Positions 1,261-61,849 are shown, counted from the first letter of the whole stretch. The stretch: 63,998 nt of DNA, filler included, from Malassezia furfur (GCA_052055015.1; 3 parts of 3 records of this genome joined end to end with filler, not necessarily neighbours in it); one strand, 5' to 3'. Numbers and translations: made by a program. The notes: generated by a model from the sequence alone, not told the origin.

Positions 1261-1842
1261 TGGTCTGTCTGTGTAGGAAGCGCCAACCGCTCCGTGGTGA
1301 GACACAGGACATGGTATAGCGGCAGGGCCCACACGGTGCCGGCGAGCAGCGCAACGACCTCGTGCGGCGTCGCGCGCGGCAGCGCGGGCGCGCCGCCGGC
1401 CAGGCCATACAGGTGTGCGGCCCACGCGGCCTGTGCACGCGCATAGTACGCCACGAGCGACCAATGTGCGCCGAGCGGCAGGCACCACGCCGCGCCCAGC
1501 ACCGCGACGTGCGTTGGCGCGGCGTCGGACGCGAGCGCGTACACGGTATACGCGGTCGAGGCGCCCGCGAGCGCAGCCGCGCGCATCGGGACGTACCCTA
1601 GCGCCCATAGCGCCACGAGCACTCCCACGTTCGCCTGGGTAAGCCGGCCAGAAAACACACCCATCCATAGCGCACGCCGTAGCGCCGCGCGGTGCGCGGG
1701 TGTGCGTCGATCCACGCACTCAACTGCATGAGCGCCAGCGCTGCATTAGTACCCCCTCGCGTCACCCACCGAGCGCCACGACGAGCAGCACGAGCGCGGC
1801 GCCCCCCACGGCCCCCGCATACCACCCGAGCGCGCTCGGCAT
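1257..1842 (-). CDS. SVP26: Svp26/Erv26/TEX261-family ER-Golgi cargo adaptor, 3 exons
   Basis: ATG 1842; introns 1741-1769 and 1635-1660. Spliced protein MPSALGWYAGAVGG..ALALMQLSAWIDAHPRTARR..EVVALLAGTVWALPLYHVLCLTTERLALPT follows the Erv26 hydrophobic pattern (recognised from memory). Confidence 0.65.
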
Positions 1843-1865
1843 CGAAGTGGAGGCTCCGCGCCGCG

Positions 1866-2542
1866 ATGGACGCCGCCCAACCCCCGGACGCGTCGCCGCT
1901 CGCGCACGCGTTCCCGCGCATTGCGCAGCTCTCGCGCGACGAGCTGCGTGAGCTCGTCGAGACACCCTCCAATGCACACGAGGCACGCGAACAGGCCGCA
2001 TACGTCGATGCCCTGCTCCATACGCTGCCCGACGTCCGCGCCCTGTACGACGAGCACGAGCAGCTGCTCCATGAAGTCGAGCGCGCCGCAGGTATGCACA
2101 TGCACACGCGCCTTCTCACACAGCCCAAAACGAGCAGCTACGTCCGGCACTGCTCGCCCTGCGTGCCCAGACGCGCGCGGCGTACGACGAAGCGTGCGCA
2201 GCCGACGCGGCGTGGCCTGCGATCGAGCGCGAAATGGACGAGGCCTACAAGGTACGTGTGCTACCGACTCATTTAGCGCTTCACACCCGCTGCGCTGCAA
2301 ACGCGCCTGCAGCTCGCGATGAACGAGGTGCACGACGAGAGCGAGGCGCTCGCGAACGCCTACGTCGAGGGCCTGCCGACCTCTGCGGCCGGCGACGTGA
2401 TCGATGTACGTTGCACCTTCTGCGCTACTTACTCCAGGACACTACGTTCGTGCGGCAGTACCGCGCGCTCCGCACGCTTTACCACCGCCGCGCCAAGCTC
2501 CTTGAGCAGTGCGCGCGGCAGCGCGTCCAATGGCACCCCTGA
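1866..2542 (+). CDS. VPS37: ESCRT-I subunit Vps37 (Mod(r) domain), 4 exons
   Basis: Introns 2092-2123, 2252-2276 and 2406-2437 join the frames into ..FTPAALQTRLQLAMNEVHDESEALANAYVEG..FVRQYRALRTLYHRR. Confidence 0.75.
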
Positions 2543-2656
2543 CCCTCGGTGAGTCCACGTGCGCAGATAGCGTGTGGAGGCGCACGTGTGCTGCGTGCGG
2601 CAGCCGGGCCCAAGAGCCGCCGGTGGGGGCACGCCTGCTGCCTCTCTCACGGCACC

Positions 2657-3094
2657 ATGTCGACGCAGCCTCTCTTGCAGCGCACGGCGGGGAAGCGCAT
2701 TGCGCTCCCCGTGCGGGTCGAGCCTAAGGTGTTCTTTGCGAACGAACGTACTTGTATGTACTGGCACACTCACACGCAGTCCTCTCGTGGCTCAGCTTCA
2801 CCGTGACGCTCTCGGCGCTGGCTGCGGGTCTGCTCAACTTCGGCGACAAGGTCGGCCGCGTGAGCGCTGCGCTGTTTAGCTTTGTCGGTACGTTTACACA
2901 CACGCAAGGCCCACTCATACCCAGCCGTTGCGATCATGCTCTACGCGCTCGTCACCTACCACTGGCGTGCGAACGCGATCCGGAACCGCGGCAGCGGCCC
3001 GTACGACGACCGCCTGGGTCCGACGATCCTCTCGGTGCTCCTGCTCACGGCCATTCTGGTCAACTTTGTGCTGCGTTTCAACGAGGACGCATAG
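2657..3094 (+). CDS. VTC1: Vacuolar transporter chaperone 1, 3 exons
   Basis: [45 protein letters not shown]; introns 2754-2779 and 2888-2924. Confidence 0.95.
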
Positions 3095-3223
3095 ACCCGC
3101 CGCTGTCCAGCTGAACCCTGGCAGCAGGCGGATAGTACGATAGGGAGAGGATTAGCACGATGCACGCCCGTGTGGGGTTCACACGGGATTGGTCACACTA
3201 GGGGTATCTACAATGCCATTGCT

Positions 3224-3777
3224 CTATGCAATCGCCTTTTGCGCGATGGGATTCGCGTGGATCGTGACGCCCCGCATGCGGATCTCCTCGACCGGCCGGT
3301 GCTTGGCGTCAACGGGCACCTTTTCCATCGCGTCAAGTGTGCCGCCCAGCTCAGCACCATCAATGACCTTGCCAATAATGGTATACTTGCCGTCCAGATG
3401 CGGCTGCTTACTGTAGGTGATAAAAAACTGCGGTCAGTGCACACGCGCCGCCGTACCTGCGACTTGTTCGTGTTCGGCGCGCTGTTAGCCATCGCCACGA
3501 TCCCACGCGCGTTGAACTTGAGCGTCGGCCGGATCTCGTCTTCAAATGGTGCACCCCAGATCGACTCGCCGCCTTTGCCGGTTCCCGTAGGGTCGCCGGT
3601 CTGTGTCAATCTACCACGTACCTGGATCATAAACCCAGCCATGTTCCGGTGCCACTTCACTTCATCGTAGACGCCCGCCGCACAGAGTCCGAGGAAGTTT
3701 TCAGCAGCGCGCGGCACGATCTCACAGAACACCTCGACCTTGATGTCGCCCAGCGACGTGTGCAGCGTCACACTCAT
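3224..3777 (-). CDS. PPIL3: Cyclophilin-type peptidyl-prolyl isomerase (PPIL3/Cyp10), 3 exons
   Basis: [48 protein letters not shown]; introns 3601-3621 (21 nt) and 3428-3456. Confidence 0.9.
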
Positions 3778-3857
3778 CGTCTGGGTGCGCAAGGAAGGCA
3801 CTCGATGCTTTGTCAGCCTAGGCGATTTTGGCCTCTTTTACGTGCACGGGCGTCGTC

Positions 3858-6800
3858 ATGCACGCCGACGACGCCAAAGCAACGCTCGAGGATGCGGCGA
3901 TCCTGACCGGCGACCGCGACGCCGCGCTGCACATTGAGCGCGCACGACGCTCGCGTGAACAGATCATGCGTGGCGAGGGCAAAGAGGGTACGTTGGCTGC
4001 TCACGCCAGCGGGCATGCAGCAAGTTCTGGCGCAGCGCTTGCACCACTTTGCACAGACCAACACGTTTCGCAACGTGTCGCGCGACCTGCCCCTTTCGCA
4101 TCCTGATGGAAAGGATGCGGACCTCTTGCAGTTGCAGCGCAATACAGGGTGGCTCTCGCTCGCCTCGCTCGCGCAGCTCCATCACCTCGTCGCATGCTCG
4201 CCGACCCCCGCCCCGCGGGGCAGTGAACCTGCCGCCCTGCTTGGCGCGCGCGACTTGGGCGTCATCAAGCAGCTGCTCACTGCAAGCTTTGCATGGCTCG
4301 TTGTGCCCCTCGTGGAGGCGTACGACGCCACGTACGGCGTCTTGTTCCCCAGCCTGGCCGGCCGCATGTCGGACGACGCGCGCATCCACGAGGCGGACAA
4401 GGACGAAGCATTGTGGCACAGCGCCAATACGGACCTCGTGCGAGTCGCACGCGTGCTTCTTGCGCTGCTGCAGCCAGGGGATCCGTCAGCATCGCACACA
4501 GCCCTGCCCGTCTCTCGTGTCGCCCGAACGGACGTCGCGGTGCTGGTCCTACGCATCTACTTTGTGGATGTACTTCGTGTGCTCGTGCGAGTCTCATTTG
4601 GGCCTGCATCGGCGGAGTTTTCTGACGACGCACAAGAGGCACAGAACCAGCTGCATGCCCTGCTCGAGGCGCTGCCGACGTCGGTCGACTTGGCTGCACT
4701 GCGCAGCGTTCCGGCGGTGAGTGCACTGTCTGCCCACGTCCGCGGCGGGGCGCCGCGCATCCCGGCATTTGTGCGCGAGCACTGCGGGCGCCTTCTGTCT
4801 GTCCAACTCCTGCGCCCCGAGGGCGTGCGCTCCTTGTTAATCGGCGTCCTGGGCGCGAACGAAACGGACATGCTGAGCGGCGATATTGGCGACGATTTGG
4901 GCGACGCTGACAGTACGTTCTCCTCTCTAATCCAGCCACATTCAAGCGCCTTGACAGTGCCACCAAACTCTTGACGACACCTCCCAAGGGCATGAGCCGC
5001 ACAGCGTACTATGAGGCCATCCTGCCGCATGTGCTTTCCGTACTCGACCCCGTCACGCCGCCGCATACCACCCCAGTCCATGGCATGCACCGACGTGCGG
5101 CCGCATTCACCATCATGCGCATGCATGAGCGCAGTGCCGACGCCGTGCGGGCCTCGCTGAACCCGGTTGTGTTTGACGTGCTGGGCACCAACAGCGCCTC
5201 GGCTGCCGACGTCGATCGCGCGCTGCGTCTGCTGGCCGCCGCAGTGCTGCTTTCTCCGCCGTCCCCCGACTTTGTTCAGTTCCTGGTGGGCTCGAACGCA
5301 GCGCGTCTCTTTGCGCTCGATTCCTTCTTGGAGCGGGCGCCCGCGGCCAAAGTAGCCGTGGCCGACGAGACACGGTCGCTCGAGACCCAGCGGAATGAGG
5401 TGCGTGAGGTGCTGCACACCTGGCTCCGTCTTGGTTCGAGTCGGGAAATAGTTGATACGCTCAGCCAAGTGCTGGACAAGGCGGGGACGGCCGACACGGC
5501 TGCATGGCAGTCGTCGAGGAACGGTGTCCAACTGGTGCCACAAGAGTACGCATATGGTCTAACCCAGCCCTGCTGTGGCCAACGAGGCCGGCATCCGCGC
5601 CTTTTTGGACTCAGGTGCACTCTCGGTCGAGCCGGTCGTGTCCATGGACCAAGACGCCGAGCCGCGGCTCCCTGCCGAGCTGTTGCGCTCCCTCGACTTT
5701 CCGATACAGCCTCAGCGTCTTGTCGCGCTGTTGAAGCGTGCTGACCGCAAGGACGTCGCGAGTGAACTATTGGTGCGCACGCTCGAGGGGTATGCCCGTG
5801 CGCAGAAACAGAGCGAAGCACAGGTCACGGTCGGCGACGTGAGTACTGCCGAGCTTGAGCAGCGCGCGGTCTTCAACCTGCAGCTGATGGGACAGTTGCT
5901 CGAGGCGTTTGGATCGGAGCTGCTCAACGGCGATCTGGACCGCATCTTGCACTTTATCGACTATGCGTGTACGCAGCCACCGCACGAGCCGAGTCAGGAG
6001 CAGGGAACCATGGCGACCCTGCTAAACATCCAGAACGAATCGGCGGACGCTGCTCCCGCCCACGACTGGGAACTCATAACCACCGCGCTGAATCTGCTCC
6101 TCTCGCTGCTCGAGGGCAATCCCACCGTCACACTGCAGAACACGCCCATGCTCCACGTGCTTCGCGCGAAAATCGAGCACCTACGCGATGCACCGAACGG
6201 CGACGTCCGCTCACTCAGCCAAGAGGTCGTGTTGGTGCTGACCGCACGCGAAAAACAGACCGCGCCATCGACCGAGGCTGCCGAGCAGCCGAAGTACCTC
6301 GATGTATACCAAGAGGCCCTACGGTACTTGCAGGACCCCATTATCCCAGTCCGCGCCCATGGTTTGCACCTCCTCGCCCAGCTGGTATCCAAAGACACCC
6401 GGGATGTGTCGTACGGAAACACATTGGATCCGGCGCTCCTGCCGGCCATCTTCGACATTTTCGTCCATGCCATCCAAGATGAAGAAAGCTTCTTATACCT
6501 GAATGCCGTCAAGGGGCTTGCCCAAATGACGGCGCACTGGCGCGACGCGACGCTTCGGCCTCTCATTGCCCTGTACGTCGGCGGCGAAAAGACGGAAATG
6601 AGTATGACACGCGCTTTGGCATATGGACAGGAACTATCTCAGCGCGAGACGGACAAGCGACTACGCATTGGTGAAGCCATTCTGCAAGTCCTTCAACACT
6701 GTGGCGAGGCCATCACCCCAGCGATCGACGTGATTGTGAATCCGCTTCTCACCGGCGTGCGCAACCCACGATTCTCTGCGACACTACGCAGCTCGTTTAT

Positions 6801-7428
6801 TTCCATTCTGGGCACCTGTGTGGAATTTGCTCCAACAGCACTCGCCTCTAGTGGTGCAGCCAACGAGATGGTGCAGTTGTGCGGCGACTTAGTCAAGATC
6901 GAGAGTGTGCCTCGATCCATGACGCGCAAAAGTGCCGTGACTGGGCGCGTGACAGGCCGCGACGAACACGGAAACACAAAAACGATGCAGCTCGATGAAG
7001 AAGAAGAGAAGGAACAACGCGATGAGCGCGAAGCTCGCGCAGGTATTGACGTGGACCCTAAGCTACCCCAACTACGTGGCTCGGCCTTGCTGCTACTTGC
7101 GGTCCTTCTGCGATCCACCCGTCATCAGCTCGATGCCTTTGTGGAAGATCGAAGTCGAGACATTGAATCAGATGGGCCAGATACGCTGACTTCCCTGCGC
7201 CTGCCGGGCGGTAGTATGCTCCCAGACACGGGCGCAAAGAAGAAGAGCCATGCGGCACCGGCGCTTCTCGTCTCGCTGGACGCAGCCCGCCGTATTCTAC
7301 CGACGGTTTCATATACATCGAGCGAGGATGTGGATGCACTCGTTCAGCAGCAGGCGCGTGACTGCATCCAGGAAGTACAATTGCTCGAAGCTGCCTATGT
7401 GACGGCGCACGCTGCTGGGCTTCCTTAG
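3858..7428 (+). CDS. RTP1: RNA polymerase II assembly factor Rtp1/TANGO6-like HEAT-repeat protein, 4 exons
   Basis: C-terminal LQDPIIPVRAHGLHLL..IQDEESFLYLNAVKGL..DKRLRIGEA motifs. Introns 3988-4009, 4913-4935 and 5546-5567 join four ORF segments in frame. Confidence 0.8.
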
Positions 7429-7482
7429 GCCTCCACACGGCGATCCCCACAATGCAGGTGCGCTTGCCCGAATTTAGTGAAC

Positions 7483-7533
7483 GTGCGCGGACCTAAAAAA
7501 TGTCACAGTGCGCGGACCTAAAAAATGTCACAG
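7483..7533. repeat. Perfect 25-bp tandem duplication (GTGCGCGGACCTAAAAAATGTCACA x2)
   Basis: Read directly at 7483-7507 and 7508-7532. Confidence 0.95.
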
Positions 7534-8160
7534 CCACATAGAGCCGGCAATAATTCGATAAGACGTACCCCAGGATTACATTGAGCTGTTCTCGTACGCA
7601 AGCCCCCCAACCTTAGCAGACACACTGTTGACCAGACCGTACATGGAGGTAGCGTCGCCGTAATACAGAGCCTCTTTCGCCCTAATTACAATGTTGCTCT
7701 TGTCCATAAGCACAGATGACACTCGCACTGTATCCGTATCGGCCATACCTGACTACCTAGCTATGGCGCTCGTGTTTAGATTGTCCTAGCTCCCGGATGA
7801 TACCACCTGCTCTCGTAGCTTCGATGTGTTCGAGCATGTTCGCATTGATCGAATTGTGGCACGCATCGGTTCTACTCCGAGGCACAAAGCCCGGGGATGC
7901 ACCGTGCCAAACGTCACAGATCCGTGGACCGATCGATGCTAACAGCGCCTTTAGAATATGCACCGATTCCCCCGTGTCAACTTTAATTGGCCTCAATGTG
8001 CACGTGAGGCGCGGGGCCGCATACACTTTTTCCCAGCGTGCAGTCCGTACACATTATTGCCTGGTCTGTTCGCGCCAATTCACCGTGGTTGACACGGAAA
8101 ACAGTCGACCTGTGGCGCCGCATTACTTCCATCTTCCAAGCCCTTCCAACGTCTGCCAAG

Positions 8161-9211
8161 ATGTCGACGACAGCTTTCCAGCCACCGATGCCCGAGTGCT
8201 GGTAGGTACAATTCACTCATGCGCAGGGGCCACCGCGGTGCCTCGGCGGCATTTCCTGAGAACACGCTGGCCTCGTTCGAGCAGGCCATCCGTGATGGAT
8301 CGGAGGGGATTGAGAGTGGTATGTGTTCATACTTATGAAGACGTGCATGTGACTGCCGACGATACGCTTGTGATGTTCCACGACACGACGCTCGACCGAA
8401 CAACCAACAGCAAGGGTGCGCTAGCGCGCAGGCCCTACTATGGCCCGGAAGGCATCGAGCACGTCCGCACGATTGAGAAGCCCGTGCAGCAGATCCCGAC
8501 CTTTGATCAGCTGTGCGAGCTGTTGATGAAGGAGGAGAACCGTCATGTGAAGCTCAATGTGCGTCTTATCCGTGGCTGACCCAGGTTGATATCAAACCGG
8601 ACAATGACCCCGAGCGGCTCTTCACCTTGATGGATAAGATTGTGCGCAAGTTCCACAACTACGAGAAAGACCTTGCGCCGCGGTTGATCCTTGGCCTGTG
8701 GCACCCGAAGTTCTTGGAGCCTGCGAAGAAGCATGTACCCACGCTCTTCCGCGCGCACATTGGTGCGTCGCCGGCAGATGCGCTCAAGTACTTCTGGGAC
8801 GACTGCGGTGCCTTTTCGCTGTGCTTCCCTGCGCTGGTCACGGGTGAGGGCCAGAATTTCCTGAAGCGTGCCAAGGAGGAGAACAAGGACGTGATGGTTT
8901 GGACCGTCAATCGCATCGATGAGATGATTGAGGCGACGCGCTGGGGCGTCAAGGCCATTATCACTGACCGCACCGATGTGCTGCACAAGCTGCGCGAGGA
9001 GATGGCTCAGGACTTTATTGCCACGGAGAGGAAATACGTCAGTCCGTGGTTCCGGTGGGCCAACTACCGCTACTACACACCGACGGCATGGATGTATGGC
9101 CAGATGTGCTCCCACAATGTCGAGGAGCGTGCAGGTGTATGTATACGATGGCTCACGCAGATTACCTATGCTCAGAGTGCCCAGCAGGCCCGTGCGGCGG
9201 CGGCATCGTAG
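8161..9211 (+). CDS. Glycerophosphodiester phosphodiesterase (Pgc1-like), 5 exons
   Basis: ECWGHRGASAAFPENTLASFEQAIRDGSEGIESDVH..MFHDTTLDRTT; introns 8202-8226, 8319-8340, 8559-8584 and 9137-9160. Confidence 0.88.
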
Positions 9212-9246
9212 TCATGTGATTGTATAAGTGCGTTGTGTTCTCCACC

Positions 9247-10401
9247 ATGTGGGTGCTCCGAGCGGCGGTGGTGGTGCTGGTGAGTGCGTGGGCGGCGCTT
9301 GCGCTGCCCAGCATTCCCAAGGACCTCTCTCGCTTCCCTGATGACCTATTTCAGCCGCTGCCGGTGGTGATCTGGCACGGGCTGGGCGATTCGGCCTACT
9401 CGCCCTGGCTGCTGAAGCTGAAAAAGCACATCGAGACGATGTACCCCGGCATCTTCGTACATCTTGTGGCCATCAAGCCAACGCTCTTCTCGGATCAGCG
9501 TGCGACCGTGTTTGGCAATGTCAACGATCAAATTGATCTGGTGCATCGCGAGTTGAATGCGATCCCAGAGCTGCGCCACGGCTTTGACGCCGTGGGCTTC
9601 TCCCAGGGCGGGCAGTTCATGCGCGGCTATGTCGAGCGCTACAACGCACCAAGAGTGCGTAACCTCATCACCTTTGGGTCGCAGCACATGGGTATCACCG
9701 ACCTACCTGCGTGTCAACCTTTCGACGCACTGTGCCACACCGTGCATGGGTTGGTGGAAGGCCGTGTGTACTCGGACTATGCGCAAAAGAGCATCGTCAC
9801 GGCGCAATACTTCCGTGACACGCGTACGGAAGAGCAGTTTGCGCTGTACAAAGAGCGCAACAAGTTCCTGTACGACATCAACAACGAGGGTCCCAAGAAG
9901 AACGCCACTTACAAGGCCAACTTAGAGCGGCTCGACAAATTCGTCATGGTCAAGTTCTCGGAAGAGAGCACTGTGGTGCCGGCCACTTCGTCGTGGTTCG
10001 CAGCGTACCCGGACCCTGACCGCCACGAAGGGCGTGCGAACGCAACGATCCCCCTGCGCCAAAGCGCCCTGTACGAAGAGGACTGGGTCGGCGTGCGAGC
10101 GCTCGATCGGAAAGGCGCGCTTGCGTTCCACGAGTGCCCGGGCATGCACATGCACCTGAGCCCCGAATGCATCGCATTGACGTTTGGGCAGTACATCGGC
10201 CGCCCGCGCGTCGTGCGCCCGTGGTCGGAACACGTTCACTCATGCCGTGCAACAACGCTGTCGGCGTCTGTGCTCCTATGGAGCTGTATCATATTCGTTC
10301 TGCTAGGTCTCGGGATTCGGCGCATGCGCTCCCGGCGTGTGCCGGAGCATGGCCCTATACATCTCGTGTCCGAGACACCGAGTGAGGTGAAGAGCTATTA
10401 G
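9247..10401 (+). CDS. PPT1: Palmitoyl-protein thioesterase 1
   Basis: Signal peptide, VIWHGLGD, GFSQGG nucleophile motif and C-terminal TM segment. Confidence 0.9.
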   Translation: MWVLRAAVVVLVSAWAALALPSIPKDLSRFPDDLFQPLPVVIWHGLGDSAYSPWLLKLKKHIETMYPGIFVHLVAIKPTLFSDQRATVFGNVNDQIDLVHRELNAIPELRHGFDAVGFSQGGQFMRGYVERYNAPRVRNLITFGSQHMGITDLPACQPFDALCHTVHGLVEGRVYSDYAQKSIVTAQYFRDTRTEEQFALYKERNKFLYDINNEGPKKNATYKANLERLDKFVMVKFSEESTVVPATSSWFAAYPDPDRHEGRANATIPLRQSALYEEDWVGVRALDRKGALAFHECPGMHMHLSPECIALTFGQYIGRPRVVRPWSEHVHSCRATTLSASVLLWSCIIFVLLGLGIRRMRSRRVPEHGPIHLVSETPSEVKSY

Positions 10402-11917
10402 AGCTTCTTCGGCCGGTTCGGCAGCTCGGTCTGGGTCTGGTGGAACGGCTTCAAGGCCCGTCCGAGCCCAAGCCAGAAGGCCGCAAAGGCAACGGCCAGG
10501 ATAAAGAATCCATAGTAGTCGGCACTCTTCCATGCACGCAGTGTCGAGCCAAGGTCAAGGGTCAGGAACGAAATCACGGCGAAGTCGACGGTGACTTGCG
10601 TCGCGATAATGGAACAGATCGAATACACCACCTGGAGCGGCGTGTACTCCCGGAACGTGCACAGCGTCGGATCCGGCGTGCGGATGTTGGCAAAGAACAC
10701 GGGACGCAGCGACTTGCGCAGGAGTCGCGCAATGTACTGGTAGAGGCCAGCGAGGATAAAGGTCATGTAGTATCCCAGCGAGATCCCGTGCCAGAATGCA
10801 CTGACAATAAAGGTCACCATCATGCTCTTAAACCCTGGGCGCTTCCCCGGCTTGGCGAGACGCTTGTACACATTCTCGCGGAGCCACACGTTCGTGTTAG
10901 AGTTCCATGCATCCAGCAGCTCTTTCCAGTTGTTCGCAAACATCACACCGCGCACCGAGACGTTCTTGCACCGCGTCCAGATCGGCTTTTTGGTCACCGG
11001 GTCTTCGCCCAAGTAACCCAGACCCGACATGACGCACGCAGCATCAGACATGGCCCACAGTCCAAAGTAGCGGAATCGAACAAACACGCCGGCCAATTGG
11101 ACAAATCCAAAGCGGTGCCAGAACGAGGTGCTCTGCAGCACATCCTTGGGATCCGCGAGGCGCTGGTAGCTGAACTGCTCCATCGAGTAGCCCTGCATAC
11201 CAAGGGCCAGCGCGCCAAACGCCATGCTCTTGAGGGAATGCACAAGGCCACCGGGAGGGGGCAGACTCCGCGGCGCGTACAGTTCGTTATTGGCCCAGCG
11301 CTGGTAGTCGGCAAACCGGGTCGAGGGTCCCACAAGCACACCGGGGAAATAGAAGCTGGGTCAATGAAGTGCGTACGTACCAATATCCGTAAAACTCGAG
11401 CAGCGACGGCATCTGCGTAATCTTGCTCGCGCGTTGCGTCTCGTCCAGGTCCTTCACGGAGCGCATCTGTCCATCGTAGCAACTCCATGCAAAGGAGGTT
11501 AGGTTCATGCACAAGACCATGTGCATAGAGGAGATCTCCACGGTCGTAAGCGGGACATCGTTGAGCTGACGCGCGAGATGGCTGGGTAAGTCGAGGGACG
11601 TACGTGCAGAGCATGTGTGCCATTTCAAACGCAAATGCGACCCAAGGCATATGTTTCCCACCAATGCGGAAGTACGCGATCAAGTAGACTACCAGCGAGG
11701 TCGCGACAAGCTGCACAGTGCCGCTGTACAGATGCAGCACTCCCCACAGGAAGAACATCGACACGCTAATATTCATAACATGGCGCAGAGAAGCCGACGG
11801 AAGCCTCGGCAAAATGGGGCTTAGCACATACGCCAGCACTAGACATCCTACAATCTTGATATAGTCCGGCGGGATGTCGAACTGCTCCGAAATCCAGTGC
11901 GCCATAGGATCAATCAT
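10398..11917 (-). CDS. ALE1: MBOAT lysophospholipid acyltransferase, 3 exons
   Basis: WNSNTNVWLRENVYKR..SAFWHG MBOAT motifs; introns 11582-11603 and 11356-11380. Confidence 0.9.
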
Positions 11918-11967
11918 GGTGAGAACCGGGATCTCAGATTTTGCTCGGCCGAATGCACGGGCCAAGT

Positions 11968-14078: not shown

Positions 14079-14116
14079 CGCGAGCGGAGGTGGAGGGGTC
14101 GACTATCCACAAGACA

Positions 14117-15224: not shown

Positions 15225-15284
15225 CGTGGATGCGAAAAGCGGTGGCCCGCTGACTAAAACTCTTCGCCGAACGCACTGACGCGA

Positions 15285-44345: not shown

Positions 44346-44445
44346 NNNNNNNNNNNNNNNNNNNNNNNNNNNNNNNNNNNNNNNNNNNNTTAATTAATTA
44401 ANNNNNNNNNNNNNNNNNNNNNNNNNNNNNNNNNNNNNNNNNNNN
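44346..44445. other. Artificial contig linker N44-TTAATTAATTAA-N44
   Basis: Identical to the linker at 22135-22234. Confidence 0.98.
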
Positions 44446-46408: not shown

Positions 46409-46456
46409 CCGCGACGGTCGCGAGAGCGCACAGGGAAATCTTCGGCCGAGACACAA

Positions 46457-48149: not shown

Positions 48150-48307
48150 CAGTCCAAGCTTGGGGTCCTACTCCCGGCCCATCGCCGGTCGCGCAGAGAA
48201 TGGGGTGTTGGAATACCGTATTCCCCCGCGTGAATTTTGGTTCTGACTAAACCTGCGACGCAAGATCGAGCCAGTGCAGCGCCACGCCGTGCGTTTTCAC
48301 CACCACA

Positions 48308-49356: not shown

Positions 49357-49383
49357 GTTCGCTCGTCTCTACGGTATCTAGCA

Positions 49384-50082
49384 CTACACAAGGACATCGT
49401 CGTACGTAATGCCCTCTGCCGGTTAGGAGAGTATACGTACTCAAGGAACCCCCCGCAAGCGCGCGCTTGACATGGTTGGCAAATGAGGCGCGGTCGCGGC
49501 GCAGATCCTCGGCGGCCTCTGGGTGTGAGCGCGGCGTACGGAAAGGTACGTACCTTTGTTCAGCGGGTCGTCGGGGTTCGGGTCGAGGAACAGGAACTGC
49601 AGGCCGACGAGCACCGAATTGAGGTTCAGGATCGGATTCCACTCCTCGCGCAGGATATTGAGGCATACGTTGCCCTCCAAGTCGAGGTTCGGGTGGTAGA
49701 GCTGCGTGAGCCGTGCGGCGTACCTTTTGGACGCACCGCACCTTGGGCGGGTCGTGCGGGTAGTTGTTGTTGATGGCGACCGTGAAGCGGAATGCGCCGC
49801 CCTTGTACATGCCTGGATCAGTGTGTGGCGTGCGCACCCTCGTCTGGCGTGATGGTGACCTCGAAGTGCATCAGGTCCGCCGGATCAGGGAACTGCGTCT
49901 TCATCGTGCTGGGCAGCTCCAGTTCCGTGAGGTCTGCGTGAGTGGTGAGAGCATACGCACCCTTTTGCACACGCAGCTGTGCGGGTGAGGTTTTGGGCCG
50001 CTGCTTCTTCGCCTCGTCGGCCTCCTTCTTCTGGCTCCAGAGCTGCGGTCAGTGCGCCGCGGGGGCCGCGTACATTGATCAT
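49384..50082 (-). CDS. UBC12: NEDD8-conjugating enzyme Ubc12, 7 exons
   Basis: [41 protein letters not shown]; introns 50043-50073, 49934-49960, 49813-49837, 49702-49723, 49519-49553 and 49416-49440. Confidence 0.92.
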
Positions 50083-50125
50083 GGTGGACCGCTGACTAAG
50101 CCCGCTCTTGTGCATTTGCGCAACC

Positions 50126-51524
<1,399 letters not shown>

Positions 51525-51545
51525 ACGCCCGTAGACGCTATCGTG

Positions 51546-52463
51546 CTAGGCATGTACCGCACGGCGCACGCCCTGTATCACCGAGCGCGTCGCCCACAGC
51601 ACGGCGAGCAGCGTCAGTGCCAGCACCGCGGGATAGAGCGTCACGTTGCCGACCGGTACGGGCGTGGTCATGGCGGTCGTCGCGCGCGGCAGCATCTTGG
51701 GCATGTACAGCGCCTGGTCATTCGGCGCAAGCGCCGCGCGCAGCTCGGTGCGCAGGTGCGCGTGCGTGCTGGGCAGCACATCGTCGACGTCGACCTCGTG
51801 CCAGACCATCGTGTCCGGCATGGACGCACATGCCGCAAACACGACGGGCCCGCCGTCCGCGATGATCGGCACATGTTCGTAGTGCTGCTCGCCCCAGCGC
51901 CGGATGCGCGGCGCAATGGTCGTCGCCCATGTGTGGTGGATGCGGTGCGCGGCGTGCGCGACGGCGTGCGCGGCGCCGTGTGCGCCATCTGTGTCGTCAT
52001 GCGCGTCCTCGGGGGGCGCGTCCCGGTGCGGCGCGCGCGCAGGGTGGTAGCGCACGTGCAGAGGGATGTGCACCTGCGTGTCGAGCGCGTCCGCAGCGCG
52101 GGGTGCGAGCTCGAGAAGGACGGCGGTGTGCTCGCACGTCGGCCCGTGGCACGATGGCATCACGCGCGCCAGCGCAGTGGTCGGCACGTCCTCAACGGAG
52201 ACTTCGACCTCGCCGACCTCGGCGTCGGAAGCCCAGCCGACGGGCTTCTCGAGCTCGACGTGCCCGAGGAACTGCACGTCGCTCACCGGCTCGGAGCGCT
52301 CCATGCGCGCGGTGTACGGGTCGAAGAACACGTCTGGCGGCAGCGGAGCAGCGATGTACACGGTGCACTGCTCCGCGCGGGCGATCTCGCCCGGCACCGT
52401 GACGACGAGCCGCGGGGCGAAGGAGCGCTGCGCCTCCGCCGCGTACTCCACCGTGGGGTCCAT
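51546..52463 (-). CDS. PIG-X/Pbn1-family GPI mannosyltransferase I subunit
   Basis: LPPDVFFDPY..ELEKP..IPLHVRYH..VPVG followed by a C-terminal TM segment. Confidence 0.7.
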   Translation of the reverse strand: MDPTVEYAAEAQRSFAPRLVVTVPGEIARAEQCTVYIAAPLPPDVFFDPYTARMERSEPVSDVQFLGHVELEKPVGWASDAEVGEVEVSVEDVPTTALARVMPSCHGPTCEHTAVLLELAPRAADALDTQVHIPLHVRYHPARAPHRDAPPEDAHDDTDGAHGAAHAVAHAAHRIHHTWATTIAPRIRRWGEQHYEHVPIIADGGPVVFAACASMPDTMVWHEVDVDDVLPSTHAHLRTELRAALAPNDQALYMPKMLPRATTAMTTPVPVGNVTLYPAVLALTLLAVLWATRSVIQGVRRAVHA

Positions 52464-52484
52464 CGTAGTGCGGGGTGGGGAAGT

Positions 52485-52502
52485 GCACGTGGTACCACGT
52501 GC
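52485..52502. promoter_or_regulatory. 18-bp perfect palindrome GCACGTGGTACCACGTGC (double E-box) in a divergent promoter
   Basis: Read directly between the PIG-X and 6PF2K start codons. Confidence 0.6.
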
Positions 52503-52556
52503 TGGCGCGCTCAGGGCACGGCGGCGGCGGCGGCTGCCCCGCAAGCGCTCCACACC

Positions 52557-54629
52557 ATGGCGCAGGAGCAAGAAACGCCCTCGACGCCGCTGTCGCCGGA
52601 CCCTGCGGAGCCCGTGCCCGTGTCAAAGTTCACATCGGTGCACGGCGATGCGCTTGCGCATCCCTCGGGTAGCGTCACGCCGACACCGATCCCCAGCGCA
52701 GACACCGATACGGGCGACGGCGCGGCGGTGACGCCGCCGGCGACCGCGCGGCCGCGCGCGCCGTCGGTCGCGCCCGAGCTGCTATCACGCCCTGCATTCG
52801 CGCCCGATGCAACGATGCGGCGCAAGTTCGAGGAGAAGGTGGCCACGACGCCGCTTGGATCGACGTCCGATGGCCTGCTGGCGCTGCTGCGCGACCACCC
52901 TGAGCTGGTGTCGGACGAGCTCGCGAAGGAGGCGGAGAAGATCCTGCCGAGCGAGGTGACGCTGCCACTGTCGCATGGGTCGAGCAGCTACATAAGCACG
53001 CCGAACGAAGCACAGAACGTGGCGAGCACGCTGTTCCCCGGCGACCCTGCGCACGAGACGCAGGCCGAGGTGCTGAACCCCGTGGGCCCGACCTTCCCGC
53101 TGCCCGATGTCGCGCGCCCCGTGCTGCAGTCGGTGGACAGCTCGAGCCGCTTCCACAAGATCCGCAAGGCGAGCATCTCGAGCGCGCAGCCGAGCACGCC
53201 GAACCTTGGGCAGACGGTGGCGGCGCCCGACCACCGAGAGGAGAAGATTGTCGTGGCGATGGTCGGTCTGCCCGCGCGCGGCAAGAGCTACCTGAGCAAC
53301 AAGCTGATGCGCTACCTGCGCTGGCGCGAATACAACGTCAAGGTGTTCAACGTCGGCCAGCTGCGCCGCGCCACGGCGCGGCTCCGGCAGGAGAAGACGG
53401 GCGTGCGCGAGGAGCAGACCGCCGCGTTCTTCGACTCGCACAACGCCGTGGGCCAAAAGATGCGCGACGAGCTCGCGCGCGAGTGCCTCGAGCAGCTGAT
53501 TGGCTGGCTGCGCGACGGCCCCGGCAACGTCGGCATCCACGACGCGACCAACACCACCAAGCAGCGGCGCCGCGAGATTGCCGAGCGCGTCGCACGCGAG
53601 CCAGGCATGCGCCTCGTGTTCCTCGAGTCGATCTGCACGGACCCCGCGGTGATCGAGGAGAACATCGAGGTGAAGGTGTCGAGTGCGGACCCCGACTACT
53701 TCCACCTCGACCGCGCACAGGCCAAGGAGGACTTTCTGCGGCGCATCAAGCACTACGAGGATGTGTACCAGCCGCTGGATGCGGACGGCGACGAGAGCAT
53801 GTACAGCTACTGCAAGATTGTCGACGTCGGCCACAGCGCGACGATGAACCTGATCAGCGGCTACCTCGAGTCGCAGATCGCCTTCTACCTGATGAACCTG
53901 CACGTCACGCCGCGGAACATCTTTTTCTCGCGCCACGGCGAGTCGCAGTTCAACGTCGAGGGCAAGATCGGCGGCGACTCGGACCTGTCTGAGCGCGGCT
54001 GGGCCTATGCGCGTGCACTGCCCAAGCTCATCCGCGAGCACGTTGGCGATGCGCCGCTCACCGTGTGGCACAGCTCGCTGCGCCGCACAGGGCAGACGGC
54101 GAGCATGCTCGACTACCCCAAACTCGTCTGGAACTCGCTCGACGAGCTCGACGCGGGTGTGTGTGACAGCATGACCTACGAAGAGATCGCCAAGTACTAC
54201 CCGGAGGACTATGCGAGCCGCGACGAGGACAAGTTCAACTACCGGTACCGTGGCGGTGAGAGCTACCGCGACGTGCTCGTGCGCCTCGAGCCCGTGATCA
54301 TGGAGCTCGAGCGCCAGGACAACATCCTGATCATTGGGCACCAGGCGATCATCCGCGCGCTCTATGCCTACTTCCACGGGTACGACCAGAACGAGCTGCC
54401 CTACATCAAAGTGCCGCTGCACACCGTCATCCAGCTCACGCCCAAGGCGTACGGTTGCGACGAAGTGCGGTACCAGCTGCCGATCGAGGCCGTGGATACA
54501 CACCGCGCGCGGCCGCAGCGCTCGCTCGCATCGAGCGTCTCGTCGCTCAATCTCGAGGGCGAGGAAGACGAGCGGATGCGCGCGTCTACCAGCCAGCCCC
54601 CCAGCCAGCGCCAGGCAGCGCGCAGCTAG
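52557..54629 (+). CDS. 6-phosphofructo-2-kinase/fructose-2,6-bisphosphatase
   Basis: VGLPARGKS P-loop, DATN and RHGES phosphatase His motif. Confidence 0.93.
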   Translation: MAQEQETPSTPLSPDPAEPVPVSKFTSVHGDALAHPSGSVTPTPIPSADTDTGDGAAVTPPATARPRAPSVAPELLSRPAFAPDATMRRKFEEKVATTPLGSTSDGLLALLRDHPELVSDELAKEAEKILPSEVTLPLSHGSSSYISTPNEAQNVASTLFPGDPAHETQAEVLNPVGPTFPLPDVARPVLQSVDSSSRFHKIRKASISSAQPSTPNLGQTVAAPDHREEKIVVAMVGLPARGKSYLSNKLMRYLRWREYNVKVFNVGQLRRATARLRQEKTGVREEQTAAFFDSHNAVGQKMRDELARECLEQLIGWLRDGPGNVGIHDATNTTKQRRREIAERVAREPGMRLVFLESICTDPAVIEENIEVKVSSADPDYFHLDRAQAKEDFLRRIKHYEDVYQPLDADGDESMYSYCKIVDVGHSATMNLISGYLESQIAFYLMNLHVTPRNIFFSRHGESQFNVEGKIGGDSDLSERGWAYARALPKLIREHVGDAPLTVWHSSLRRTGQTASMLDYPKLVWNSLDELDAGVCDSMTYEEIAKYYPEDYASRDEDKFNYRYRGGESYRDVLVRLEPVIMELERQDNILIIGHQAIIRALYAYFHGYDQNELPYIKVPLHTVIQLTPKAYGCDEVRYQLPIEAVDTHRARPQRSLASSVSSLNLEGEEDERMRASTSQPPSQRQAARS

Positions 54630-54770
54630 TCACCGGACACCGCGCACGGCCAGCTTTGCACCAAGCCTCGCCCGTTCGGAGCCTATGTGGAGAGGTTTGG
54701 CCTCGGCCCAAAAATGCGGCTATTTTTCCCTTAGCTCCACAGCGCACATCACTTCGGCTTCATACTACGT

Positions 54771-56522
54771 CTAGCGCCAGTGCGACATGCGCTTCTCTTC
54801 TGCGTGACGGCGCTTGACCATGGCGGCCACCTTCGGACCCCAGAATTCCTCCGGGTCGCTCTGCTCCTTAAGCACCTGCTCGTGTTCCCGCGCCTGCTTG
54901 CGGGAAAAGAGCACGACGTTGTTGTAGTCCAACGGCTTCTTCGGGTCCCAGCGCATGAGCTGGCCGGTGGCGAGCGACTCGTACGGCGGGACGACGGTGC
55001 GCCCACGGAACATCTCCTCAAAGATGTATGCACAGTCATTTACACTGAACGGAATGCGCACCACCGGCGGCGGGCCCTTGGCTGACTGCGCGGTCGAGCG
55101 GTACGTCGGCGGGACGTCATCGTCGGTGAGCGCGCGGCGGTTGGCGGGCGCAGGGTACGACTCGTCGCGCGGCGGCGAGGGGTAGCGCGACTCGGTCACG
55201 TTCAGGTCCGCAAACAGCTTCTCGTACAGCTTGCGGCGGCCCTTGACAGCTAGCGGCTCCATGCGATGCCGCGCGAGGTCGCACAAGATGTACGTCGCCG
55301 CTGCCAGCCCGAACATCGCCGGGAGGGGGCCGAGCACGGGCAGAATACGGACCCGGAAGTCGTCAAACGCCGCAAGCTCGCCGACGTCGCCCTTTTCCAT
55401 CTCCTCCTCTGACAGTGGCAGGAGTCGTACGTCCGACTTCTCTGTAGAGTATACACAGGGCACCTTCCACTCCTGGTAAAAGTCGTCCTCGGTGTACTTG
55501 GGCGCCTCAGCGACCTTGGGCGTCGACGGCTGCGCCGGCGACCCGGCGGGGGTCGAGTAAGAGTCGGAGCCCGTCTCGGATGCAGCCGAGGCGCGGCGTG
55601 TAGCGGATGGGCGCGCCTTGTCGGCGTCAGACGCGCGGTTCTTGTTCTTCTTGGCGCCTGGGTCTTTGGCGGGCTCCGAAATCACGCCGGGGATCGGCGG
55701 GACGCCAGCGGCACGCAGTTCGCGGCGGACGACGCGCGCAAGCGGGTCCTCGACGGTGGTCGAAATGTCGCTGATCTGGATCCGGCTCGGGTCCGCCTTG
55801 GCACCGGCGCCCATCGAGGCAAAGACGCGCAGGTTGTGCTGGTAGCAGTATTTGAGCAGCTCGACCTTGGTCTCGAGGTTATCGATGGCGTCGACGACGT
55901 ACGTCGGCTCGCCCTCCAGCAGCCTGTCGGCCTCGTCAGCGCGGAAAAGATCGACGCACGCCTCGACGTTCGCCCACGGTGCGATCTTGTGGAAGTATTG
56001 CTTGCAACACACCACTTTGGGGCGGCCGACGTCGGCGAGCGTCGCGCACGCGTGCCGGTTGAGTGACGAGAGCGACACTTGGTCAAAATCGATGAGGCGG
56101 ATGTGGCTGACGCCCGAGCGGAGCAGCATGAGCGCGGCCCAGCTGCCGACGCCGCCGGCGCCGACGACGATCACAAAGCTCTTGCGGATAGCATCCATAC
56201 CCTCTTCGCCAAAGAAGCTGTAGTTGCGGCTCAGCTGCTCGCGGATGAGTGCGTCGTCGTAGTTAGCATCGGGGGTGATGCCCTGCGCCTCGTGCATGCT
56301 CGCCGCGAGGCTCGCGGGCGGCACGTCGTGGGCTTCCGGGAGCTGCGTCGCTTCGCGCCGGGCCTCCTTGCGGACTTGGTCGGCGAGTTTACGCCTGCGA
56401 GCGCGGCGCACGACATGCTGGTACGTAAGCACGCTTGCGAGCGTCGCGACGGACGATACGGCCGCCGCGATACCCACAAGCAGCGCGCGCGACGGCGCGG
56501 CCGGCTCTCGGCGGACGCTCAT
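54771..56522 (-). CDS. tRNA threonylcarbamoyladenosine dehydratase (Tcd1/Tcd2, ThiF family)
   Basis: N-terminal TM, GAGGVGS, DFDQVSLSSLNRH, DAIDN and FRVRILPVLGPLP. Confidence 0.9.
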   Translation of the reverse strand: MSVRREPAAPSRALLVGIAAAVSSVATLASVLTYQHVVRRARRRKLADQVRKEARREATQLPEAHDVPPASLAASMHEAQGITPDANYDDALIREQLSRNYSFFGEEGMDAIRKSFVIVVGAGGVGSWAALMLLRSGVSHIRLIDFDQVSLSSLNRHACATLADVGRPKVVCCKQYFHKIAPWANVEACVDLFRADEADRLLEGEPTYVVDAIDNLETKVELLKYCYQHNLRVFASMGAGAKADPSRIQISDISTTVEDPLARVVRRELRAAGVPPIPGVISEPAKDPGAKKNKNRASDADKARPSATRRASAASETGSDSYSTPAGSPAQPSTPKVAEAPKYTEDDFYQEWKVPCVYSTEKSDVRLLPLSEEEMEKGDVGELAAFDDFRVRILPVLGPLPAMFGLAAATYILCDLARHRMEPLAVKGRRKLYEKLFADLNVTESRYPSPPRDESYPAPANRRALTDDDVPPTYRSTAQSAKGPPPVVRIPFSVNDCAYIFEEMFRGRTVVPPYESLATGQLMRWDPKKPLDYNNVVLFSRKQAREHEQVLKEQSDPEEFWGPKVAAMVKRRHAEEKRMSHWR

Positions 56523-56543
56523 GGCACGGACGAGGCCACGTTC

Positions 56544-56555
56544 CGTCACGTGACG
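56544..56555. promoter_or_regulatory. Palindrome CGTCACGTGACG (Cbf1/USF-type E-box) in the TCD/RPA190 divergent promoter
   Basis: Read directly in a 95-bp intergenic gap. Confidence 0.6.
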
Positions 56556-56617
56556 ACCAAACTTTTTTCGAGGGCGCACGGCGCTGCTTCCTTGCGAGTG
56601 CGCGCGACGTGGCGGCG

Positions 56618-59600
56618 ATGGACATTACGCGTGCGATCACGTCGTATGTCAAGTCGGCCTCGTTCTCGTTTCTGACGGCCGATGAGGTGCGCAGCATCTC
56701 GGTCAAGCAGATCGTGAACCCGGTGCTGCTCGACAATGCCAACGCGCCGACCGAAGGCGGTCTGTATGACCCGGCGCTCGGTCCCATGCGGCCGGACGAT
56801 ATCTGCCGGACGTGCCACCAGAACCACTTTGACTGCCCGGGGCACTTTGGGCACATGGAGCTGCCCTCCCCGGTGTTCCACCCACTGTTCATGAACCACG
56901 CCTATTCGCTGCTCCGCGGGACGTGCGTCTTCTGCCACCACTTCAAGATCTCGCGCGTGGCGATGGCCAAATACACGGCGCAGTTCCAGCTGCTGGACTA
57001 TGGCCTGGTGGATGAGGCGCAGGCGATTGCCAAGGAGCAGCTCAAGCGTCCGCTCGGCGCTGCCTCCGCCGCCGACGACGCCGCCGAGAGCGACGACGAG
57101 GGCGACGAAGACGCCGACGCCGACGACGCCGACGACAAGACGGAGCGCGCGGCGGTGCGTGCTGACAACGTCCCGATTGAGACCGTGGACGAGTTTGTGA
57201 AGCGCATTGCCGCCACTACGCGCGACCATATCCGCGGTGCGATCCGCCGCGGCGCGAAAAAGGGCGCCGACCATGGCTCGGCAGAGTATGCGGCGCGGCG
57301 CGACCTGCGCAACGTGTTCCTCAAGGATATCCTGCGCCGCCGCTGCGAGCGGTGCCAAGCGTACGTTGCCCCCCACTGACCCAGGATGAACCCTACGCTG
57401 CGCAAGGACGGCTTTGTGAAGATCACCGAGCGGGTGTTGTCCGCGCGCGACGCGGCCATCCATGAGGCGCGCGGCATCAAGCGCGACAATGTGCTGCTGG
57501 ACCGCGGCGCGCCTGCGGCGGCTCGTGCGGCGCCGGATGCGGAGCCGATGGTCGTTGACAGTGCGGACGCCGAGGCGCCGACGCCGGCGCTCTCGCTCAA
57601 GGATGCGCGCAAGCTGAGCAAGGATGCCGGCGACTCGACGCGCGTCGTGCCTGCGAGCGAGTGTCGTGCGAACTTGCGCCGCCTCTTTGCGAACGAGGCC
57701 GAGATCTGTGCGCTGATCTTTGGCAAGCACCCCGTGTTTGCCTCGGGGGCCGCGGCGCCGAACGCCGACGTCTTTTTCCTCGAGACGATCTGTGTGACGC
57801 CGACGCGCTTCCGCCCCGCGAGTGTGATGGGTGACCAGACGTTTGAGAACGCGCAGAACGAGCTGCTGACCAAGATTCTGCAGACGTCGTTCCTGGTGCG
57901 CGACCGCAATGTGCAGGCGCAGGCGTTCCAGAAGAAGAGCAACTACCCCCTGCTGGACGGCGTCGAGGAGGCGCAGGCCCTTGTGCTGCAAAAGCGCTGG
58001 GAGGCCGACCGGCGTATGGCGATGGACCTGCTGCTGAGCGCGATGATGGAGCTGCAGGTCGCGGTGAACTGCTACATCGACTCGTCTAAGAACCCGGCGC
58101 CGATGCGGCAAGGACAAGCGCCGCCGCCGGGTGTGAAGCAGGGCCTCGAGAAGAAAGAGGGTCTCTTCCGCAAGCACATGATGGGCAAGCGCGTCAACTT
58201 TGCGGCGCGCTCGGTGATTTCGCCCGACGTCAACATCGAGACGAACGAGATTGGTGTGCCGCCCGTGTTTGCCAAGCGGCTGACCTACCCGGAGCCGGTG
58301 ACCGTGCACAACTACGAGTTGATGCACCAGCTGGTGATCAACGGCCCCGACACCTACCCCGGTGCGCTGGCGGTGCGTGCCGAGGACGGCAGCGAGACGC
58401 TGCTCAAGCACCTCTCGGTTGAGGAGCGCACGGCGCTCGCCAACCAGCTGCTGACGCCGCAGGGCCAGACGTCCAAGCAGGCGCTCGGCACGTTTGGTGG
58501 CGTGGGCGGCACGCTGCGGACGCCTGTGGCGAACAAGCAGGTGCTGCGCCACCTGCGCACGGGCGACATCCTCGTGATGAACCGGCAGCCGACGCTGCAC
58601 AAGCCGTCGATGATGGCGCACAAGGCGCGTGTGCTGCAGGGTGAGCGGACGATCCGCATGCACTACGCCAACTGCAACTCGTACAATGCCGACTTTGACG
58701 GCGACGAGATGAACATGCACTTCCCGCAGAGCCAGATGGCGCGCGCCGAGTGCTACAACATCGCCAACACAGACAACCAGTACCTTGTGCCGACGAGCGG
58801 CAACCCCCTGCGTGGCCTGATCCAGGACCACGTCGTGGCGGGCGTGTGGATGACGTGCAAGAACACGCTGTACACGCGCGAGGAGTACAACCAGCTGCTC
58901 TACGGCGCGCTCCGCCCCGAGAACTACGGCGCCACCGGCCGCATCCTGACGGTGCCGCCCGCGGTGCAGAAGCCGGTGGCGCGGTGGACGGGCAAGCAGG
59001 TGATCACCACGATCCTGCTGAACCTCAAGCCGGCGCACGCCGTGGGCCTCTACCTGCGCTCCAAGGCCAAGGTCGCGGGCCGCTTCTGGGGCGCGGAGCA
59101 CAAGGAGGAGGAGACGGTGGTGATCGACGACGGCGAAATGCTCACGGGCGTGCTGGACAAGTCGCAGATCGGCGCGTCGGCCTACGGCCTGGTGCACGCC
59201 GTGTACGAGATCTACGGCGCAGAGTCCGCTGGGCGCCTGCTGAGCATTCTGTCGCGCCTGTTTACCATGTGGCTGCAGGCGAATGCGTTCTCGTGCCGCA
59301 TGGACGACCTGCTGCTCAGCCAGCAGGGCGACGCGGAGCGCCAGGCGCTGCTTGCTGAGGGCGCGACGATCGGCCTCGACGCGGCGATGCGCAACGTCGG
59401 CCTCGAGGGGCAGAGCGCCGCGGATCCGGACACGAACTACAACCTGCGCCGGCGTCTCGAGGAGGTGCTGCGTGACGACACGAAGCTTGCGTCGCTCGAT
59501 GCGGACGAGATGTCGGCGTCGAACAAGCTGACCTCGGCGGTGATCAACGCGTGCATCCCGTCGGGCCTGCTCCGCCGCTTCCCGGAGAACAACATGCAGA

Positions 59601-61843: not shown

Positions 61844-61849
61844 CGTACA

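Follow-up and report, generated by a model that had tools for sequence, protein, structure and literature searches.

Evidence for tiny U2-type spliceosomal introns with a 21-nucleotide floor in Malassezia furfur

Introns and genes in the window

The window analysed here is a stretch of 63,998 nucleotides (nt) from the Malassezia furfur genome (GCA_052055015.1), made up of three contigs joined by N linkers at positions 22135-22234 and 44346-44445, with a G+C content of 64%. It carries, amongst others, genes for a cyclophilin (Cyp10/PPIL3), a GDPD-family protein, an arrestin-family protein, a rhodanese, UBC12 and the largest subunit of an RNA polymerase, which are interrupted by very short candidate spliceosomal introns. 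Our census of the window comprises 41 such candidates of 21-38 nt, 32 of which (78%) fall at 21-27 nt, close to the 33 of 44 (75%) counted in an original prediction made from the same DNA. All ten introns quoted there by position are GT...AG segments of the lengths claimed; six of them (starting at 3601, 11582, 13874, 46328, 47893 and 49702) sit on the minus strand, which had been left unstated.

The census combined a donor-branch-acceptor motif scan with pattern searches and direct reading of the sequence, positions 24001-42999 and 52501-63998 being covered by motif scans alone rather than base by base. The motif scan returned 67 matches, 31 of them at 20-29 nt, where about 2.0 were expected from 30 Markov simulations, and a strict pattern matched 16 times, whereas 100 shuffles gave 0.25 matches on average and never more than 2. 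The excess of introns in the window is therefore not a product of chance.

The assembly amounts to 13.68 Mb spread over 1,856 contigs, among which positions 2040-20000 and 44450-53100 of the window recur as second copies at 88-93% identity (G000:C174, C577, C1246). These paired copies have the pattern of a two-subgenome hybrid, and we refer to the presumed subgenomes as such below. One UBC12 exon is 100% identical to both Malassezia furfur and M. japonica proteins; the other UBC12 exons agree best with M. furfur models. The GT..AG ends are kept in both subgenome copies for 32 of 32 introns compared. Length differs between the copies in ten of these, in eight by a number that is not a multiple of three, and never drops below 21 nt, and no exon indels were found in three full subgenome alignments (about 5.3 kb); ten of the intron pairs were read by eye rather than from full alignments. 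As far as sequence comparison reaches, the eight out-of-frame length changes together with exons free of indels show that the segments evolve as non-coding sequence.

Removal of the segments restores conserved proteins in the UBC12, Cyp10, GDPD and RNA polymerase genes. The Cyp10/PPIL3 gene (minus strand) contains as its first intron a 21-mer at 3601-3621 that is in frame and stopless. At this site 117 of 120 homologs have one residue where read-through would give eight, that is, seven extra; the remaining three are a model of the second subgenome copy called without regard to introns, a Rhizopus model that is six residues longer here, and one protein without a motif match. The other copy of this intron is likewise 21 nt long, with the splice signals kept and the middle changed. 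The second intron (3428-3456, 29 nt; 27 nt in the other copy) separates Pfam positions 2-106 from positions 107-158.

UBC12, also on the minus strand, has six introns, which are 31 nt (intron 1, 50043-50073; 32 nt in the other copy), 27 nt (intron 2, 49934-49960; 26 nt in the other copy), 25 nt (intron 3, 49813-49837), 22 nt (intron 4, 49702-49723), 35 nt (intron 5, 49519-49553) and 25 nt (intron 6, 49416-49440) in length. Introns 2 to 6 are supported by protein alignment and all six by subgenome alignment, and across the 22-mer the UQ_con domain runs on from positions 41-69 to positions 70-119. Five UBC12 exons tile the proteins of M. sympodialis, Tilletiaria, Naematelia and S. japonicus with zero extra residues. 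The first coding exon measures just 9 nt (50074-50082). An intron-free Logan protein (P0259) spans two UBC12 junctions; we gave it little weight as complementary DNA evidence, its gene caller being unknown and the behaviour of P0122 mixed.

The GDPD gene (plus strand) is interrupted at 8202-8226 (25 nt in both copies, found by pattern search), at 8319-8340 (22 nt, where Pfam GDPD positions 1-28 continue nearly seamlessly with 32-98), at 8559-8584 (26 nt, motif scan and subgenome alignment) and at 9137-9160 (24 nt, in frame), the last of these containing an in-frame TGA in the other copy. In-frame stops inside introns whose length is a multiple of three occur, besides this second GDPD copy, in a METTL16-like gene described below and in the RNA polymerase largest-subunit gene, in which a 24-nt, in-frame intron (57361-57384, plus strand; also matched by the strict pattern) holds the stop that ends an open reading frame (ORF) at 56429-57379, with Rpb1 domain 1 before it and domains 2-5 after it. 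Pfam continuity is limited to the three junctions in UBC12, Cyp10 and GDPD, since no family was found for five of the 16 exons tested and one more gave weak off-target matches alone.

In the arrestin-family gene (minus strand), intron 1 (48097-48121, 25 nt) was found by motif scan and subgenome alignment, and intron 2 (47893-47913) is a 21-mer matched by the strict pattern, in frame and stopless, whose other copy is also 21 nt long with the signals kept. The rhodanese gene (plus strand) carries a 22-nt intron 1 (48629-48650; 21 nt in the other copy) and a 25-nt intron 2 (48662-48686; motif scan and subgenome alignment). Between them lies an 11-nt micro-exon (48651-48661) that is identical in both subgenome copies, so that two spliceosomes would have to act within 58 nt.

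Length distribution and splice-signal geometry

For the genome-wide census we used the strict pattern GTAYGY-gap-YTNAC-N-YAG, with the reversed pattern as control. It matched 3,395 times at 20-27 nt versus 55 times in the control (about 60-fold), 524 versus 201 times at 28-57 nt, and 96 versus 49 times at 15-20 nt. Once the controls are subtracted, lengths of 21-27 nt account for about nine tenths of the strict-motif introns of at most 57 nt, and halving the 3,395 matches gives about 1,700 tiny introns with the strict motif for each subgenome. The description of these introns as pervasive in the original prediction thus holds genome-wide, with thousands of them at 21-27 nt.

The distribution has a mode of 21-22 nt, with a concentration at 21-23 nt. 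The first 100 matches listed give counts of 0, 27, 29, 17, 9, 11, 4 and 3 from 20 to 27 nt. In 780 kb of sequence (78 loci, L019-L036 and L063-L122, partly from the same contigs as the first-100 sample), 138 GTACGY introns of 19-29 nt are distributed as 32, 33, 27, 12, 14, 5, 3, 8 and 4 at 21-29 nt, with none at 19-20 nt. Above the mode, lengths divisible by three may be under-represented (12 at 24 nt versus 14 at 25 nt; 3 at 27 nt versus 8 at 28 nt), though the cases are few. At the lower end the distribution breaks off within one base, from about 27 per 100 at 21 nt to 15 of 3,395 at 20 nt. The 96 shorter matches comprise 40 at 19 nt, 15 at 20 nt and 41 at 15-18 nt, and of the 55 19-20-mers, 20 were sampled; all 20 are nested in introns of 23-26 nt that have a better donor 4-7 nt upstream. 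As these apparent shorter introns lie within longer ones, we place the floor at 21 nt.

The shortest class is laid out as follows: a 6-nt donor (mostly GTAYGY) is followed by about six free bases, YTNAC with the A at nt 16, one base and YAG. A polypyrimidine tract is absent from this class, and there is no room for one. The motif-predicted branch position agrees with the original prediction, which had put the branch A of the 21-mers at about nt 16; the donor-branch ruler and the preference for C or U rather than A at donor position +4, both described in the following, had been missed there. In introns with tails of 2-4 nt from the 78 loci, the branch A lies at nt 15 in none, at nt 16 in 12 and at nt 17 in 12, after removal of three rows that represent a window intron and its second copy. 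A tail without the spacer base occurs in none of the 78 loci and once in another locus. With branch points assigned by motif, there are accordingly two spacing limits: the branch A is found at nt 16 or later, and its distance from the 3' end is 5 nt or more. The 21-nt floor follows from the sum of the two. If total length as such were limiting, a lengthened tail could make up for a branch A at nt 15, which the counts of 0 versus 12 and 12 rule out; the floor tracks the spacing from donor to branch.

The donors of 245 introns in the 78 loci have C at +4 in 167 cases (68%), T in 46, G in 22 and A in 10 (4%), the types being GTAYGY, GTGCGY and GTAGGY. GTAAGT and GTGAGT, the usual fungal donors, are rare among them. 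A GC-AG donor was matched once, at 22 nt, the sole length tested, and is of minor importance. The two quoted 21-mers have 48% and 67% G+C and are not AU-rich. Introns of the U12 type are defined by an RTATCCTT donor and a TCCTTAAC branch, and the donors found here are of the three types named above, not RTATCCTT. Ire1/HAC1-type introns have a single target and stem-loop cleavage sites and do not obey the GT-AG rule; the segments described here follow that rule, bear a branch motif and number in the thousands. The GT..AG ends, the branch motif near the 3' end that is complementary to U2 GUAGUA, and the restored proteins support the assignment in the original prediction to real spliceosomal introns, namely of the U2 type.

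Spliceosome components and the origin of the floor

We consider it highly probable that the segments are ordinary major-class (U2-type) introns that have shrunk to a geometric minimum. Going by general knowledge of the spliceosome, U2 would pair with approximately nt 11-17 and the U6 ACAGAGA with nt 4-6, leaving about four bases unpaired. The lariat would have a loop of 16 nt and a tail of 5 nt, with the first YAG at a fixed short distance past the branch serving as acceptor. The floor probably reflects the closest approach of donor helix and branch helix during spliceosome assembly or activation. Genome compaction may drive introns down to this steric wall, which would account for the pile-up at 21-23 nt.

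A small inventory of splicing components was compiled from the assembly. U2 small nuclear RNA (snRNA) is encoded by one gene (124 bits; L003, G000:C27:12840-13032) with the canonical branch-recognition sequence GUAGUA, and U6 snRNA by two (78 bits) with the canonical ACAGAGA. The U1-70K N-domain is present in two copies, as is a METTL16-like gene (182 and 177 bits) that keeps its catalytic-type motif. The original prediction had proposed a spliceosome adapted to very small lariats and an inventory of snRNAs and proteins for losses; the components named are intact, U1 snRNA was not found, and the adaptation itself is not borne out by any loss in this inventory. The U2 snRNA gene was found once, whereas U6 and the tested proteins were found twice; a second U2 copy may have been lost or may be absent from the assembly.

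A few points weigh against reading the segments as ordinary introns handled by an ordinary machinery. The splice junctions, the efficiency of splicing and the branch points are deduced from motifs and homology. The second-subgenome comparison covers all but nine of the 41 window introns, and several of these nine have motif support alone. The genome-wide census picks up introns that are close to the consensus and no longer than 57 nt, and it misses long or weak ones. The Cyp10 model of Rhizopus arrhizus (P0016) has a 6-residue insertion at the site of the 21-nt intron, which suggests an old intron position and a mis-called Rhizopus model. A read-through Cyp10 protein carrying the seven residues exists (P0001, P0260); it looks like an intron-blind gene call, as it continues into the next intron. 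Finally, a conventional spliceosome has been only partly tested, because U1 snRNA was found neither with the Rfam model (41 of 173 candidates scored in a fragmented assembly) nor as an exact 11-mer of the canonical 5' end nor with a relaxed pattern. Further candidate loci (L011, L009, L012, L016) gave no U1 match at E<=10. The missing match is inconclusive and is not evidence of U1 loss. A U1 with a compensatory 5' end seemed to be present at L010 and L013, where the match turned out to be the reverse complement of a donor site in what we take, from the sequence, to be a ubiquitin-conjugating-enzyme gene, with no Rfam U1 there. Loss of the U1 small nuclear ribonucleoprotein is not supported, the U1-70K N-domain having been found twice.

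The strongest competing explanation is a remodelled spliceosome, with a divergent U1 (perhaps reading the +4 C) or with lost or trimmed U1, U2AF, SF3a/b or branching factors, and with recognition within 16 nt that is possibly sequential. The failure of the exact 11-mer and the Rfam U1 model to find a match, the donor bias (A at +4 in 10 of 245 versus C in 167), the lack of space for a polypyrimidine tract and the non-conserved branching-factor regions described for Stentor (PMC9505925, in the portion available) would fit it. The canonical recognition sequences of U2 and U6, the duplicate U1-70K N-domain and METTL16-like genes, the partial coverage of the U1 search in a fragmented assembly, and the nature of the two best U1 candidates as reverse complements of a protein-gene donor site speak against it, and we regard such remodelling as unlikely. 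Similarly tentative is a combination in which a hard steric wall (branch A at nt 16 or later) goes together with altered early recognition, that is, a divergent U1 reading GUACGU and donor and branch recognition that do not take place side by side. If this were true, it would provide a culturable, genetically tractable dikaryan model in which a minimal lariat could be dissected base by base. For the data so far, a largely conventional spliceosome is enough.

In budding yeasts, a switch of the donor from +4 A to +4 U has been tied to loss of METTL16/SNRNP27K (PMC10581693, as far as accessible). M. furfur resembles these lineages in that +4 A is nearly abandoned (10/245); they prefer U, whereas M. 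furfur prefers C and keeps the METTL16-like gene. Loss of METTL16 is thus ruled out as the cause of the non-A +4 and does not explain the C, because the METTL16-like gene is present in two copies. The +4 C preference occurs with this gene kept and with the U6 ACAGAGA unchanged.

It is also conceivable, if improbable, that many of the segments are spliced poorly or retained, as reported for microsporidia, above all the stopless in-frame 21-, 24- and 27-mers, and would add short peptides. The segments at 3601-3621, 47893-47913 and 9137-9160 read through stop-free, several public Malassezia proteins have 7-8 extra residues at such sites, and for microsporidia a median splicing efficiency of about 25% is cited in the consulted part of PMC13644364. 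However, UBC12 has five introns in series that are not multiples of three, so that all must be removed; in the other subgenome a stop lies in frame within the GDPD 24-mer, and the 22-mer at 48629 is 21 nt long in the other copy. Moreover, translated splice motifs stand at both ends of the inserted peptides in the public models, which is what annotation errors would produce.

Assembly errors, a pseudogenised parental copy in the hybrid, programmed frameshifts or Ire1/tRNA-type introns are hardly credible: the assembly is indeed fragmented (1,856 contigs) and duplicated, and HAC1/XBP1-type introns are similar in length, but the same segments with GT..AG ends and branch motif recur in both copies (32/32), thousands exist genome-wide at about 60-fold over control, essential genes are affected, and the intron positions match error sites in the models of other species.

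Known short introns, public gene models and further window features

Short introns in the genus Malassezia are already in print. For M. sympodialis, 5,350 curated introns with a mean of 30 bp and 99% RNA-seq support are tabulated (PMC5389616, Table 2), the median intron of M. restricta is 30 bp (PMC9241646, Table 1), and M. restricta has been annotated with a minimum intron of 15-20 (PMC6473144); a review on Malassezia speaks of 'very short introns' (PMC7426719). The accessible part of PMC3560662 contains nothing on nuclear intron size, and that of a fungal intron survey including M. sympodialis (PMC8476143) does not mention the intron length of this species. The introns described here share the trait with these species of the same genus. 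In the portions available, the M. sympodialis and M. restricta papers report averages without mode, floor, branch geometry or donor consensus, whereas here we find a mode of 21-22 nt and a floor of 21 nt. We found no published 21-nt floor, ruler-like branch geometry or +4 C donor for Malassezia in a search that left out most subscription journals, so that absence from print is not established. A survey of about 1,000 intron length distributions may already include Malassezia. That other Malassezia species share the 21-nt floor is suggested by 7-residue insertions in protein models alone.

Outside the genus there is a likeness to Stentor coeruleus, whose introns are described in the accessible text of PMC9505925 as U2-type, with conserved U2/U6 recognition sequences, a branch A 5 nt from the 3' end and a length set by geometry. 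The Stentor introns are 15-16 nt long with a 10-11-nt loop and 75.6% AU, whereas those of Malassezia are at least 21 nt with a tail towards larger sizes, have a 16-nt loop and are not AU-rich. Paramecium introns of about 25 nt and myxobolid and dicyemid introns with medians of 22-27 bp (PMC13644364, in the part consulted) belong to the same size class; the sizes in Malassezia and in these organisms have been reached by convergent shrinkage in compact genomes. According to the same source, splice-site motifs are reduced in myxobolids and Dicyema. In Malassezia the donor is still strong, and so is the branch motif, which is fused to the acceptor. Microsporidian and nucleomorph introns have similar lengths, and microsporidia are a fungal-related precedent; these organisms are intracellular with highly reduced genomes and often inefficient splicing (PMC13644364, same part), whereas Malassezia is a culturable basidiomycete. 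This 2026 paper on the shortest animal introns names ciliates, microsporidia and dicyemids, not Malassezia, as exceptions in the text available.

What determines the minimum length of spliceosomal introns has yet to be settled, and most organisms known to have tiny introns are parasites, endosymbiont nuclei or ciliates. Malassezia offers thousands of natural examples with a one-base cliff and a fixed branch-acceptor unit, and the exact 21-nt limit makes this lab-growable fungus a good test case for the smallest possible intron. Transformation and CRISPR tools have reportedly been published for Malassezia furfur, so that one can directly test the prediction that splicing is lost once the branch A is shifted from nt 16 to nt 15.

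Public gene models already include some of the tiny introns. The original prediction had expected gene finders to mis-annotate these genes as frameshifted; errors are indeed present, but those seen are introns left in, introns called too long and truncated models instead of frameshifts. We aligned 11 annotated UBC12 models from Malassezia; that of M. sympodialis alone is whole, while ten have an insertion, deletion or truncation. The M. furfur models P0124 and P0256 are six residues short directly ahead of the 22-mer, as would be expected if the intron had been over-called as 40 nt; the correctly spliced M. furfur model P0257 and the 177-residue P0258 are right at these junctions. Insertions of 7-8 residues are found at intron sites in the M. 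obtusa and M. yamatoensis models, and the Cyp10 model of M. cuniculi has seven extra residues at intron 2. Protein databases for medically relevant Malassezia are thus rich in errors at intron sites, and the minimum intron length used in annotation has to be set to 20 nt or lower.

The remaining introns of the window lie mostly in its first contig. Near its start, two minus-strand introns at 1635-1660 (26 nt, by motif; second-subgenome copy 26 nt with GT..AG) and 1741-1769 (29 nt, by direct reading; other copy 27 nt) precede a series on the plus strand. The motif scan gave 2092-2123 (32 nt; other copy 29 nt), 2406-2437 (32 nt; other copy 31 nt), 2754-2779 (26 nt in both copies) and 2888-2924 (37 nt; other copy of equal length with a diverged middle). 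Both motif and strict pattern match at 2252-2276 (25 nt; other copy 25 nt with weaker sites), and the strict pattern matches at 3988-4009 and 5546-5567 (both quoted in the original prediction, 22 nt in either copy) and at 4913-4935 (23 nt; other copy 29 nt). On the minus strand, the strict pattern identifies 11582-11603 and 13874-13895 (both quoted, 22 nt in either copy) and, together with the motif, 11356-11380 (25 nt in both copies), in which a nested second donor would give 21 nt. Minus-strand introns from the motif scan are located at 13066-13090 (25 nt; other copy 24 nt), 14173-14197 (25 nt; other copy 23 nt) and 14284-14307 (24 nt in both copies). The longest of the census, at 18112-18149 (plus strand, 38 nt), has the motif alone.

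Elsewhere, motif and Pfam family of the gene point to introns in a TCP-1/CCT gene (27979-28015, plus strand, 37 nt), a Tim17/22/23-family gene (35755-35777, plus strand, 23 nt), a proteasomal AAA ATPase gene (35987-36009, minus strand, 23 nt) and a methionine aminopeptidase (M24) gene (51356-51380, plus strand, 25 nt, both flanking exons stop-free). Three minus-strand segments were identified by motif alone, namely the candidates at 43920-43945 (26 nt) and 44075-44098 (24 nt) and the quoted intron at 46328-46349 (22 nt), which has a GTAGGT donor.

Tandem donors 4 nt apart are common (11356-11380 and 49934-49960 in the window; loci L037-L056), and alternative 5' splice sites are possible where the inner donor leaves at least 21 nt. 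Acceptors can differ between the subgenomes, with AAG in one copy and YAG in the other, as at 8319-8340 (AAG; CAG in the other copy) and in the C174 copy of 2252-2276, which also has a GTTCGT donor. Between 6000 and 8100 the G+C content dips to 56% versus 63-73% around it, with a short direct repeat at approximately 7484-7533. Beside the RNA polymerase gene, an ORF on the minus strand (61853-63514) with Pfam rve and Integrase_H2C2 domains (integrase core and zinc-binding) is probably a piece of a retrotransposon.

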